Shown piece by piece: positions 37,380 to 53,207 of a stretch of DNA of 64,000 nucleotides (position 1 is its first letter; each line of letters starts with the position of its first letter). The stretch is from a virus, in the IMG/VR virus record IMGVR_UViG_3300025603_000009, positions 18,586 through 82,585 of that record. One strand, given 5' to 3'. The notes beneath the pieces are model-generated. The model was not told where the DNA came from, did no database searches, and saw nothing but the letters and a program-made list of their open reading frames with translations. Position numbers and translations under genes: made by a program.

Positions 37380-37698
37380 AGTATTCTCTAAATATATTTA
37401 AATGATGCTTTCTTAAATATGTAATGTGAGTATTATGTTTAATATTATAATCAATTTCATCAGGAGTTAATTTATTCTCCATTAATTCCTTATACTTATA
37501 AATTAAATAACCATCACTATTAAATTGGAATCTTCCCAACTTAGCTAAATCAACAGACTCTTTACATTTTAAACATTTAGCAACTTCATTATAATATTTA
37601 ATTAAAGTAGCTTTAATTACAACAGTAGATACGTCAACATCATGTTCACGTTTCACATCTCTATTTATTGCATTAAGTATATCTACTTCATTATTCAT
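37372..37698 (-). CDS. HU/IHF-like DNA-binding protein
   Basis: LKCKESVDLAKLGRF resembles the HU 'V.L.GFG.F' signature. Confidence 0.55.
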   Translation of the reverse strand: MNNEVDILNAINRDVKREHDVDVSTVVIKATLIKYYNEVAKCLKCKESVDLAKLGRFQFNSDGYLIYKYKELMENKLTPDEIDYNIKHNTHITYLRKHHLNIFREYYG

Positions 37699-37772: not shown

Positions 37773-38072
37773 ATGGAGAATTTTGATCATATTGTAGAAC
37801 AAATTAGTTATAATACTAATTGGATAAAAACACTTATAGTTCCTAAAGATGAACTAATAAACTTTCATGCTGTATTTTATAATTTTAATATAAATATAGT
37901 AGCATCTAGTAGACTTACTAATATGAATCAATTTGCACCTATTATAATGTCTGCTAAAACTATAATTAAAGAAGATGTTGATTTTGCCGCTACTCGCGCT
38001 TTATTAACTACTGCATATCATAGTCAAATGTCTGAAGGTAATCTTTTATATAAACAAGTTTTATTTAATTAA
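37773..38072 (+). CDS. Hypothetical protein
   Basis: 99-aa ORF with ATG start. Confidence 0.5.
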   Translation: MENFDHIVEQISYNTNWIKTLIVPKDELINFHAVFYNFNINIVASSRLTNMNQFAPIIMSAKTIIKEDVDFAATRALLTTAYHSQMSEGNLLYKQVLFN

Positions 38073-38182
38073 AAATACTAGTTTCATAGCTGGTGATTTG
38101 TGTTTTAAGTTGTCTAAGTTAGAGGGGGAAGTAGTGACTCCCCCTTATACTTAACTCACTACTATGAATTATGAGTATCTCA

Positions 38183-38210
38183 TATATGAGGGTATATGAG
38201 GGTATATGAG
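38183..38210. repeat. Tandem 10-bp repeat (tatatgaggg x2.8)
   Basis: Read directly in the non-coding divergence region. Confidence 0.85.
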
Positions 38211-38227
38211 TGGTTTTGGTTAACAAG

Positions 38228-38263
38228 AAAAGATGGTGGAAACGTTCACCATCTTTTTCTTTT
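38228..38263 (+). terminator. Intrinsic terminator-like hairpin
   Basis: aaaagatggtg-gaaacgtt-caccatctttt followed by a T-rich tract. Confidence 0.55.
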
Positions 38264-38753
38264 ACATACTTATTCAAAGGCGCAACTAAATAATAATGTA
38301 ATATAAATTAGGTATTTTAATAAATATAACTTAACTTGTATATCTAGTTTAAAGAGTATGTCCGTACTCTATAAGTGCTGTCTAACACGAATACTATTAA
38401 ACGTAGTAGTATTTTGTTTACTATTTATTATGTGGTTTTGTCATGATTTTTCCACATACATGAAAAAGGTTATAAAGTTTAATACTTTGTAGCCTTTTTT
38501 TGTGTCTTATATATTTATATAAATACTAATATGGATGGGACTTAAAAAAATTATATAAATTATATTATAAATGTTGTTAGTTCGCTTTATGTTTGTAGTC
38601 GCATTGTTTGTATACCCCCGTATGTACATATGATTACTAAGTGTACTACCCACCTTGATTCAACCCCCCTTACTTATTTTTGACATGAAAGTACCCGTGG
38701 GTATTCGAGCGTCATCACTATTTATTCACATTATCTTAATACACACAAATCTT

Positions 38754-39359
38754 ATGAATACTTTTACCATTACTAACGTGCGTCTGTTACCTCAGATTGG
38801 AACTAACGCGCCTGCTATGATTATTGATGTTGCTAACCATACTACTGGTATTTACCGTAGTGAGAAGGTGGCACTGATTGACCTTCGTGATGCAGGCATC
38901 ACTGCTACTAGATTAGCTGACGTTGAACTCGTTGAACTACGTGAACGCTTCATTGGCGGTAGAGTTAGTGGAGACATTATCTTCCACAATGCTGGTAGCA
39001 CATACATTGCTGATGCAAACTCTACTGCTGTCGTTAGCGGTGCTGTCGAAGTTGGTGCTACACTCAAACGTAAGGCTGACCAATTTCGTGTTGAACGCTT
39101 TCTTACCATCTCCCGTAGTGATAACGCGATGCTGCGTTCTGCTATTGCAAAGGAAGCTGGTCAGGCAATGGCACAGCTATGCGGAGGGTTTGTTCCTTCT
39201 GCTAACGTTGGTGCTAGTGCGCAACCAGCATTAGAGGTTGGCGGTAATCATCCTGATGAAGATGATACTGTTGATGGTGACGCTGAAGAAGCTACTGAAG
39301 AAGCTACTGAAGAAGCTACTGCTCCTGTTGGACGTAGAAGCCGTCGCAAGACAGCATAA
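38754..39359 (+). CDS. First early gene, hypothetical (acidic then basic C-tail; possible nucleic-acid-binding protein)
   Basis: ATG at 38754 after an AT-rich leader; GC-richer codon usage; EEAT x3 repeat at 39285-39320. Confidence 0.7.
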   Translation: MNTFTITNVRLLPQIGTNAPAMIIDVANHTTGIYRSEKVALIDLRDAGITATRLADVELVELRERFIGGRVSGDIIFHNAGSTYIADANSTAVVSGAVEVGATLKRKADQFRVERFLTISRSDNAMLRSAIAKEAGQAMAQLCGGFVPSANVGASAQPALEVGGNHPDEDDTVDGDAEEATEEATEEATAPVGRRSRRKTA

Positions 39360-39361
39360 TA

Positions 39362-39433
39362 TGCGAAACGACGATAGTAGCGATACTATCGTCGTCTATC
39401 ACACGTGATGGTGTGGTACTGATGAGCAGTCAC
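39362..39433 (+). ncRNA. Type II hammerhead ribozyme with pseudoknot
   Basis: UGC-GAAA, 12-bp stem III with GCGA loop, GUC site (C39396), 8-bp stem I, CUGAUGA, GCA; loop I GUGA can pair with UCAC at 39430-39433. Confidence 0.9.
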
Positions 39434-39573
39434 TAATGTACGCATACGTAGTTATTACGTGTGTGTACGTAAGCATAGTCTAATCATACTTACAGCGCGA
39501 ACACTGTAATGTCTCAGACTTGTCTCTTTATTAATGTCTTAGAATTAACAACACAAATAATACCACAGAAATT

Positions 39574-39945
39574 ATGATTAAGTTTTCTAAAGTGATTAGA
39601 ACTATACTACTATCAATAGTATTAATAATATTATTCATACAATTGTATGGTGATGTATTCAGTACTACTATGCCAGTATTACTTATGGCTCAATTGATGG
39701 CTTGTATTGGTATTGCATTCATATTCTTTACAGATCATAACGAATATGATGATTGGACTCAAGTAAAACCTAAAGACTGTGATGAATCTCGTAGATATTG
39801 CAATGATATAAAATGTATTAGTGGCAATACTACATTTCTTGGTAGTAGATATGATTCCAGTGATGCAGTTGTATACAAGTATAGGTGTTATGATTGCAAT
39901 ACTACATATGAAATTGCAGAAGTACGTTTAAGAAAGAGGTTGTAG
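39574..39945 (+). CDS. Membrane protein with C-terminal zinc ribbon
   Basis: Two TM helices; CNDIKC...CYDC. Confidence 0.65.
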   Translation: MIKFSKVIRTILLSIVLIILFIQLYGDVFSTTMPVLLMAQLMACIGIAFIFFTDHNEYDDWTQVKPKDCDESRRYCNDIKCISGNTTFLGSRYDSSDAVVYKYRCYDCNTTYEIAEVRLRKRL

Positions 39946-40554
39946 ATTAACAATGATAGTAGTATTTGCATGATTAATGATATTGTGCAGATACTACTTG
40001 ATTTAATACTTATAATAATACTAGTATCTTAGCATTGACATTGATCGAAAGAAAACGAATGTGTTAGTGTATATTCATACCATACTAATTAGTATATGTC
40101 AATATTTAGTGTATATTATATATAAGGTATAGATACATTGACAAGTCTACGTACACATACAATACTATATTCAATAGTATTTGCATACACACAATCCCTA
40201 ATTATAAGTTTATACTATACTTGTACACATAATATAGTGACATATACTCACTGTATTTATGCAATTACTCAAGATAAGCGTATAACTAACAGTATTAGAG
40301 TAGCTATTTGCATTAATAATAATAATGTATTAATACTATTCACACTATTTATTACTACTTCAGATACTTGAACTAATGATAGTATCAGAGTTTATTATGT
40401 ATTAACTTTCACAAGCGTTTCCTTATAACTTTGGAATGTTAGTCTTACTCTTATGCTTTAGTCGGCAATAACATTTATTACAATTAGAAGAAATACCTAG
40501 TGTATAGAACAGCACACTAATTGTAGTATTTGTATCATCATAAAAATTAGCATT

Positions 40555-40761
40555 ATGAAACTTAGTATGAAAAGATATACTGTAACTATTAATTTCATTT
40601 TTAATAAGACAGGTAATGTAAAGAGTATTGTTGAGAATGTAAAAACATTAAAAGAAGCATTGTCTTATAAAGATATACTTGATGAAACTGTATCTACAGC
40701 ACGTATTAAAAATAATGTTACAGGTAGAATTAAATGGTTAATACCTCACACAATTAAATAA
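40555..40761 (+). CDS. Small early hypothetical protein
   Basis: ORF with AT-rich leader. Confidence 0.6.
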   Translation: MKLSMKRYTVTINFIFNKTGNVKSIVENVKTLKEALSYKDILDETVSTARIKNNVTGRIKWLIPHTIK

Positions 40762-40773
40762 ATAATAAGAATT

Positions 40774-40941
40774 ATGAGCAAGCGAGTAACAGCAAAGTTT
40801 TTACCTGAAGAAAAGAAAATGAAATTCTTAACAGTATCTAAAGAATACATAGTATTGCGAACAGATGCAGGTGATAATGTATTTATTACAGCCGACGATG
40901 GTACTGTTCGTCCTTATGCACGTAGTATGTTCGAGAATTAG
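40774..40941 (+). CDS. Small early protein (55 aa, SH3-like beta pattern), not in ORF track
   Basis: MSKRVTAKFLPEEKKMKFLTVSKEYIVLRTDAGDNVFITADDGTVRPYARSMFEN. Confidence 0.65.
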   Translation: MSKRVTAKFLPEEKKMKFLTVSKEYIVLRTDAGDNVFITADDGTVRPYARSMFEN

Positions 40942-40980
40942 TATCATCATTTCAATTCATTGTTTTAATACCTACAACAG

Positions 40981-41145
40981 ATGAAAAAAATATTAGTATT
41001 AGTAGTAGTATCTATGATGGTAACATCATGTGTAACTAAACACACAACACAGGGATACAAAAATGTGTGGGAAACTAAAGATGGTAAGATGCGCAAAATG
41101 CGTACAACTGAACGTCCGTTATGTATTGATTCTTGGAAGCCATGA
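40981..41145 (+). CDS. Small lipoprotein (54 aa), not in ORF track
   Basis: MKKILVLVVVSMMVTSC lipobox; stop overlaps the next ATG (ATGA). Confidence 0.7.
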   Translation: MKKILVLVVVSMMVTSCVTKHTTQGYKNVWETKDGKMRKMRTTERPLCIDSWKP

Positions 41146-41367: not shown

Positions 41368-41449
41368 AAAATGTCTCTTTTATGGGCGAGGTTAATAATC
41401 CACTTTTAAATAAGCATTATTAATAGTGGTTCAAGTCCACTGCATTTTT
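41368..41449 (+). ncRNA. tRNA-like cloverleaf with enlarged anticodon loop
   Basis: 7-bp acceptor AAAAUGU/GCAUUUU, weak D-like arm, 8-bp stem with 16-nt loop, canonical T arm AGUGG-UUCAAGU-CCACU. Confidence 0.55.
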
Positions 41450-41450
41450 T

Positions 41451-41567
41451 ATAGTAACTTTCATCCAATTGCGGGTGATTAACCATATCAGATAAACATT
41501 GTTATTGCTCAATCTAGTTATAGAGCCTTTGTTTCTTGTCAAGGTGCAACCTTGTGAGAGTTATTAT
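41451..41567 (+). ncRNA. Structured RNA with D-arm-like and T-arm-like hairpins
   Basis: 13-bp closing stem 41451-41463/41555-41567; GCUC-AAUCUAGUUAUA-GAGC; CAAGG-UGCAA-CCUUG. Confidence 0.45.
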
Positions 41568-53109: not shown

Positions 53110-53193
53110 GGTCAGATGGCGAAATTGGTAAATGAGCAATGCGTTTGTGTTGTGATACAATGTATCTTGTAGGTTCGAATCCTACTCTGACCA
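53110..53193 (+). tRNA. Leu-type (class II) tRNA body with non-canonical anticodon arm; anticodon undetermined, no encoded CCA
   Basis: Acceptor GGUCAGA/UCUGACC plus A73, UGGCGAAAUUGGUA D region, variable arm GAUAC-AAU-GUAUC, T arm GUAGG-UUCGAAU-CCUAC. Confidence 0.75.
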
Positions 53194-53207
53194 CAAAAAA
53201 TAATGTT

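Follow-up and report, generated by a model that had tools for sequence, protein, structure and literature searches.

Hammerhead ribozymes cut 3′ of C17 to leave a 2′,3′-cyclic phosphate and a 5′-OH, and the hammerhead insulators of the RiboJ type are engineered. Type II hammerheads in which loop I forms a pseudoknot with the 3′ tail are a known architecture (Perreault et al. 2011, PMC3088659). They cluster around single genes in prophages, and a role in processing long phage transcripts has been suggested (PMC3088659). For phage hammerheads, unproven roles in mRNA processing and differential stability have been proposed (PMC3088659; PMC6765202), and a 2019 review regards their function as still open (PMC6765202). 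Haloviruses HF1/HF2 carry a hammerhead termed HHphage, and primer extension there has mapped the 5′ end of an RNA close to the site of cleavage (Perreault et al. 2011). Its core is a variant that requires very high Mg2+, and the motif lies 13 nt before the start codon of a helicase. Twister ribozymes in 3′ UTRs are cited in the 2019 review (PMC6765202). For the Crassvirales, ribozymes are mentioned once in a review, in the context of self-splicing introns (PMC10136315).

The hammerhead described here lies within 64,000 nucleotides of viral DNA, termed the window, corresponding to bases 18586-82585 of an 82,585-bp IMG/VR record that is rated complete by CheckV. The GC content of the genome is about 30%. 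The major capsid protein is 37-40% identical to those of the Intestiviridae over 96-99% of the length, with PF23898 present in the homologs, and the portal and large terminase proteins match crAss-type PHROGs with E = 7e-85 and 3e-108 respectively. Judged by these three proteins, the genome is that of a crAss-like phage (Crassvirales). It is part of a large environmental clade, with capsid proteins that are 46-69% identical and genomes of about 80-90 kb. DNA of the phage is found in 24 sequencing runs, all of which are DNA metagenomes from salt lakes, and no RNA run is among those listed for it.

Structural genes occupy the minus strand up to position 37698. From 37773 the plus strand carries small ORFs, followed by helicases and DNA polymerase. 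By analogy only with crAss001 and phi14:2 (PMC10136315), the genes on this plus-strand block would belong to the early or middle class, with a virion RNA polymerase transcribing them. The ribozyme lies within this block. It would share with HHphage both a hypersaline habitat and a location in an early or replication gene region. It differs from HHphage in having a consensus core, and in its position at the 3′ end of a gene. Further into the window ARAGORN finds a tRNA-Thr (UGU) with an unusually long body at 53110-53194. It scores 35.2 bits against the Rfam tRNA model, the pairs of the D stem are mismatched and a 27-nt stretch replaces the usual anticodon arm region. This may be an insertion-bearing or atypical tRNA gene. 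At 41368-41567 neither ARAGORN nor Rfam (E up to 1) gives a match.

Searching the window with Rfam cmscan gives a match to Hammerhead_II (RF02276) at 39361-39435 on the plus strand, with a score of 53.3 bits against a gathering score of 37. The E value is 3.7e-8 for the 64-kb window, and model positions 1-66 of 66 are aligned. This is the single RF02276 site in the whole 82.6-kb genome (E = 1.1e-11), and Rfam finds no other class of ribozyme in the window at E up to 1. The elements of the structure are collected in Table 1. The topology is type II, with loops closing stems I and III and with stem II open, according to the Rfam alignment, the minimum free energy (MFE) fold and a descriptor that we constructed for all three hammerhead topologies. 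The descriptor finds one site in the window, at 39362-39433. The MFE fold recovers stems I and III with a z-score of -3.5, and none of 200 shuffled sequences folds equally well.

The core-adjacent pairs required by Perreault et al. (2011) are all present as G39426-C39364, U39397-A39418 and A39368-U39395, the last being the A15.1-U16.1 pair, and the H17 position is C39396. In the pseudoknot, positions 2-5 of the loop (UGAU) pair with positions 1-4 of the tail (GUCA), with an additional pair between G1 and C5. On these grounds of sequence and predicted fold we assign the site to the common phage subfamily of type II hammerhead ribozymes. It is complete, stem II being open and 3 bp long, stem I having 8 bp and a hexaloop, and the pseudoknot comprising 4-5 bp. 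It is predicted to be catalytically competent, with self-cleavage expected from the chemistry of the family. A preliminary description of this DNA had assigned the coordinates, core, stems and GCGA loop by inspection, and on checking the sequence all are exact to the base. Its identification of a complete type II hammerhead with a loop I/3′-tail pseudoknot is upheld by the full-length RF02276 match above the gathering score, and by a pseudoknot in the register of the family.

Table 1. Positions of the hammerhead, its surrounding features and a candidate in a related phage. Coordinates are those of the window unless a locus is given.
Feature	Position	Strand	Basis or remark
ORF	37773-38072	+	First ORF on the plus-strand block
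Terminator-like hairpin, 14 bp	38227-38258	+	Terminator scan, sequence
Terminator-like hairpin with T run	38462-38500	+	Terminator scan, sequence
Upstream gene, 201 aa	38754-39359	+	Ends 2 nt before the ribozyme
TAA stop codon of upstream gene	39357-39359	+	Sequence check; followed by UA, then the ribozyme
Stem II, 5′ strand UGC	39362-39364	+	Sequence, Rfam; C39364 is position 11.1; 2 nt after TAA
GAAA	39365-39368	+	Sequence; core G12-A13-A14 (GAA) at 39365-39367
Stem III	39368-39379/39384-39395	+	12 perfect bp, from A15.1 (39368) to U16.1 (39395)
Stem III loop GCGA (GNRA)	39380-39383	+	Sequence
GUC	39394-39396	+	Sequence
C17	39396	+	Predicted cleavage C39396/U39397, from Rfam alignment and family chemistry
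Stem I UAUCACAC/GUGUGGUA	39397-39404/39411-39418	+	8 bp including one G-U pair
Loop I GUGAUG, hexaloop	39405-39410	+	Sequence, Rfam, MFE fold
Core C3-U4-G5-A6-U7-G8-A9 (CUGAUGA)	39419-39425	+	Sequence, Rfam
Stem II, 3′ strand GCA	39426-39428	+	Sequence, Rfam; G39426 is position 10.1
3′ tail GUCAC	39429-39433	+	Pseudoknot partner of loop I GUGAU (39405-39409)
Hairpin, 15 bp with G-U pairs	39436-39470	+	MFE and centroid fold; 3 nt after the ribozyme tail
Next ORF, 123 aa, no family	39574-39945	+	Presumed to lie on the 5′-OH cleavage product
Candidate type I hammerhead in relative G018	L209 2105-2168 (G018:C1, about 2776-2839)	-	Custom descriptor

We have compared this hammerhead with those in viral contigs that match the pattern with the same stem II, UGCGAAAC...GUC...CUGAUGAGCA, found in at least 120 contigs. 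Among the matches listed the dominant build has an 8-bp stem I closed by a 6-nt loop, GUGGYG. An 8-bp stem I with a 6-nt loop is present in at least 75 unique copies, and the hammerhead in the window has these same lengths. Loop positions 2-5 can form all four pairs with the four bases immediately following stem II in 67 of these 75 listed copies. The pseudoknot in the window is in the same register as in the listed copies, with four of four pairs formed and one extra G-C pair, and relative to the common UGGY/RCCA combination it bears a compensatory change of G-C to A-U. Stem III is usually 7-10 bp with a maximum of 11 bp among the 107 phage type II hammerheads listed, compared with 12 bp here. 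When 114 unique phage type II hammerheads from this listing are placed relative to ORFs of at least 60 aa on the same strand, 53% have their start no more than 5 nt from a stop codon and 77% no more than 20 nt, compared with 3% and 7% respectively of random positions. The median distance to the next start codon among those listed is 56 nt. Placement flush with a stop codon is thus typical of the phage type II hammerheads.

The RF02276 hammerheads of PMC3088659 have the same core, a 3-bp open stem II, loop-closed stems I and III and a pseudoknot of 4-5 bp, and they take the same intergenic position in phages, flush with an upstream stop codon. The hammerhead in the window is therefore another example of a known arrangement, and is structurally nothing new. 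It differs in setting. The hammerheads of Perreault et al. were clustered around cassette genes, whereas this one is present as a single copy. Its host is a crAss-like phage of lytic type with about 30% GC, while most of the comparable loci listed have about 59% GC, with many on contigs of about 35-40 kb.

The ribozyme follows an ORF encoding 201 amino acids. Searching exhaustively with HMMER gives 32 remote homologs, which are similar in length and 28-52% identical, and the family alignment contains conserved motifs that include GGxVxGD, AGxxY and RVEGFL. The protein has no match in Pfam, PHROGs or the ESM Atlas. Three perfect tandem 12-nt units CTGAAGAAGCTA at 39283-39318 encode EEAT repeats, and a population contig contains a natural variant in which one EEAT unit has been lost by an in-frame deletion of 12 nt; the variant protein is 98% identical and 4 residues shorter. 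An AF2 model calculated with the family alignment has a pLDDT of 83, compared with 42 for a model from the single sequence. Because of the 32 homologs, the in-frame variant and the confident model we conclude that the ORF is a real gene, in agreement with the preliminary description, which placed the ribozyme against the 3′ end of a protein-coding gene.

The predicted fold is a beta-barrel with a long helix at residues 123-144, an acidic disordered tail that contains the EEAT repeats and a short basic C-terminal end. Foldseek comparison of the model with the PDB gives E > 0.1. VIA-align gives Z values of 5.5 or less, mostly to the OB-fold nucleic-acid binders SSB, RPA, PriB and Stn1. In BFVD the best matches are uncharacterised crAss-like proteins (E = 6e-4), with a crAss 'SSB' at 0.03 and several phage SSBs. 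From these models the protein family is possibly SSB-like, with a weak resemblance to the OB fold, at less than even odds.

The gene has a GC content of 46.7% in a genome of 30%, and gene and ribozyme together make a GC-rich island of 46-49% compared with 22-30% in the flanks. The homologs are likewise richer in GC than their own genomes. Since this elevation is found in every relative, the island is mostly a property of the gene, and is no proof of recent transfer. The locus has no match to GenBank phages by megablast or blastn. Related loci were sought with the 201-aa protein alone, giving none, and with the family alignments, giving two viral and three metagenome loci.

This gene had been called the first early gene. 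It is not the first of the plus-strand block, as it is preceded by the ORF at 37773-38072 and by two terminator-like hairpins (Table 1). Since these hairpins lie before the gene, it probably has its own promoter within 38500-38753. The Bacteroidota-type promoter element TAnnTTTG occurs at chance level, with 43 matches against 48 expected. The stretch of about 680 nt at 38073-38753 contains no convincing ORF. It includes a hairpin GGGGGAAGTAGTGACTCCCCC at 38123-38145, 3′ of the first ORF, and a direct repeat ATATGAGGGT at 38184-38203 that runs on as ATATGAG to 38210. Closer to the gene there are C-rich inverted-repeat motifs, TATACCCCCGTATGTA and TACCC-GT-GGGTA, at 38611-38628 and 38691-38704. 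Three similar motifs, ATACCCCCGTG, GTACCCCGTGGGGT and ATACCCCGTATGT, lie upstream of the homolog in the relative G015 (locus L211). The rest of the window has few such motifs, and a promoter or operator element of the gene unit is one possible function for them.

We have examined what the relatives carry at the same place. Searching 47 related crAss-like contigs, of which three are complete and several about half complete, gives no match to RF02276, with a method that recovers the copy in the window's own genome. The five reference genomes crAssphage ZA, PhiCrAssBcn24, crAss002, FpV4 and cr271_1 likewise have none. In this sample of 53 crAss-like genomes or fragments, a type II hammerhead is therefore found in the window's genome alone. 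As no homologous copy is found in the relatives or the references, the ribozyme is clearly dispensable in the clade. The preliminary description had proposed looking for covariation in related phages. The 47 contigs and five reference genomes contain no orthologous copy to compare, and the compensatory change in the pseudoknot is seen against the wider hammerhead family only. Low-coverage population contigs from four runs are identical across it, without a variant in the ribozyme, and are therefore uninformative on selection.

The family of the upstream gene is present in five of 23 longer relatives. No Rfam family is found near the five copies (E up to 1 over seven homolog loci), and all five have a strong hairpin downstream of the homolog, beginning some 10-26 nt beyond its stop codon. 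At loci L210 and L212 the hairpins are called terminator-like on the strand of the gene, and at L213 an 11-bp stem is followed by TTTTT. Those at L209 and L211 are without a clear U tract, so that the term terminator is uncertain for these two. In the window, stem III of the ribozyme begins 9 nt after the stop codon and is followed by CUAUCACAC rather than a U tract. A terminator scan of the plus strand from 39360 to 41000 finds no terminator-like site, as the preliminary description had anticipated in stating that there was no classical terminator here. The locus resembles an intrinsic terminator in that the stop codon is directly followed by a stable hairpin containing GC pairs, and relatives have such hairpins after the homologous gene. 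It differs in having no U tract; the 3′ end would arise by self-cleavage, and transcription may continue. From this comparison the ribozyme appears to take the place of the relatives' 3′ hairpin, in an apparent replacement of a terminator hairpin.

We think it fairly probable, from the arrangement of the locus, that the hammerhead is transcribed as the 3′ end of the 201-aa gene and cuts co-transcriptionally, giving the mRNA a defined, hairpin-protected 3′ end without stopping transcription. The main reason for favoring 3′-end formation as its role is that the ribozyme occupies the place of the relatives' 3′ hairpin. Gene and ribozyme are only 2 nt apart and would be on the same transcript. During synthesis the RNA would be cut between C39396 and U39397, which is 37 nt beyond the stop codon. 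This codon would be retained in the upstream message, which would end in the 12-bp GNRA-capped stem III plus one C carrying the 2′,3′-cyclic phosphate. The polymerase would read on, and the downstream RNA would begin with a 5′-OH at the base of the stem I hairpin. Assuming co-transcription, synthesis would continue into a leader of 177 nt and then the ORF at 39574-39945. The ribozyme would thus do the job of the terminator hairpin of the relatives without ending transcription. As cleavage would not end transcription, the stability and yield of this message would be uncoupled from the genes behind. A ribosome terminating at the stop codon would occlude both the 5′ strand of stem II and the first bases of stem III, so that folding of the ribozyme and termination of translation would not be simultaneous. 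The earlier functional reading, in which the phage self-cleaves its upstream transcript, is plausible and gains some support from the comparison of sequences.

The engineered insulators, and the 3′-UTR ribozymes cited in PMC6765202, act in a comparable way in that self-cleavage parts adjacent cistrons and the hairpin-bounded ends alter expression. Those are synthetic constructs, whereas the hammerhead in the window is a natural phage element whose effect is predicted.

How do other explanations of the site fare? A chance resemblance, with no ribozyme at 39362-39433, is scarcely credible given the E value of the RF02276 match in the window and the presence of a complete core, all three stems and the pseudoknot. 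Moreover, the descriptor, applied loosely with minimal stem lengths, gives only 0.2 matches per shuffled 64-kb window, and the actual stems I, II and III are of 8, 3 and 12 bp. A ribozyme that is active but a neutral passenger, recently acquired alone or with the surrounding sequence and without adaptive value, would explain why there is one copy in the genome and none in the 47 related contigs and five references. The GC island that it forms with the gene, and the sporadic scatter of hammerheads over phages, could be read in the same way. Yet the gene is an old resident of the clade. In relative G026 a comparable distance separates its homolog from the capsid gene and, as in the window genome, the two are on opposite strands. 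The GC elevation in every relative makes the island largely a property of the gene. Furthermore the ribozyme is intact at every defining position, and it replaces the relatives' hairpin rather than adding to it. A search for flanking repeats that could mark a mobile cassette finds nothing convincing. On this evidence we consider a neutral passenger unlikely.

The main purpose might instead concern the downstream RNA, where cleavage would provide a defined 5′-OH behind stem I for the 177-nt leader, as an insulator or stabilizer, or would release a small structured RNA. The 15-bp hairpin directly 3′ of the ribozyme contains strand-specific G-U pairs, the candidate type I hammerhead in G018 (below) would act on the 5′ side of the gene, and the median of 56 nt to the next start codon among the phage type II hammerheads listed also accords with such a purpose. 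Against this, the structure of the leader as a whole is unremarkable (z = -1.9) with no Rfam family match, the ribozyme directly adjoins the stop codon of the upstream gene but is 138 nt from the next start, and the comparative evidence links the site to the 3′ hairpin of the upstream gene. A primarily downstream role is in our view improbable. More doubtful still is a translation-coupled switch, in which translation of the upstream gene would control cleavage or be signaled by it. A ribosome terminating at the stop codon, 2 nt before stem II, would cover the GAAA in addition to the adjoining strands of stems II and III, and placement flush with a stop codon is strongly enriched among the phage type II hammerheads listed. 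The coupling itself is wholly inferential, and rapid co-transcriptional cleavage would usually precede arrival of the first ribosome at the stop codon, making a switch very unlikely.

Downstream of the ribozyme the sequence has some further features. The 3′ strand of stem I, GUGUGGUA (39411-39418), has 7 nt of complementarity to UACCACA at 39561-39567, which we judge to be within chance given the many comparisons possible. UACCACA lies 7-13 nt before the start of the next ORF and is paired with GUGUGGUA in the MFE fold of the cleaved 3′ product; such pairing could mask the start region of that gene. The stretch of about 600 nt at 39946-40554 contains no convincing ORF (only one of 77 codons that starts with TTG) and no Rfam match. 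It is rich in direct and inverted repeats, for example ACTATACTACTATCAATAGTATT and ACAATACTATATTCAATAGTATT (39601, 40159).

A second candidate is found beside the homologous gene of another relative, G018. The descriptor identifies a complete candidate type I hammerhead there (Table 1), with an 8-bp stem I, the core CUGACGA, a 4-bp stem II with a 7-nt loop, GAAA, a stem III of 8-9 bp and GUC. The 5′ strand of the candidate overlaps the TGA stop codon that ends a 33-codon ORF, and about 32 nt separate its 3′ end from the start codon (ATG) of the homolog. The covariance model RF00163 scores 20.2 bits against a threshold of 34 (E = 0.013 in a 201-nt search), and RF03152 gives 25.6 bits against 56.3. 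When 48 genomes were searched with RF00163 as one family, this candidate was the sole match (16.9 bits, E = 0.0046). In the two phages of the sample that have a hammerhead or a candidate, it is therefore next to the same gene, on the 3′ side in the window and on the 5′ side in G018. As there are only two cases, we regard this as a lead rather than a result.

The two observations together would allow a more specific interpretation, in which the exchange of terminator for ribozyme is specific to a single gene family. Recruitment would have taken place independently for the two topologies, with type II behind the gene here and type I in front of it in G018, and these hammerheads would serve to release the mRNA for a single abundant SSB-like protein from a longer transcript. 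In the window the ancestral terminator hairpin would have been replaced, with the polymerase, possibly the virion RNA polymerase, reading on. We regard this as possible, but rather doubtful. What is new in the present locus is modest, comprising a crAss-like host from salt lakes, the apparent replacement of a terminator hairpin and a second hammerhead candidate beside the homologous gene. If the exchange is real, it would give a phage hammerhead a concrete and testable role, something that is listed as open in the literature. The locus also provides a clean natural comparison, in which the same gene is followed by a strong hairpin in five relatives, terminator-like in three of them, and by a ribozyme with an extra-long stem III here.
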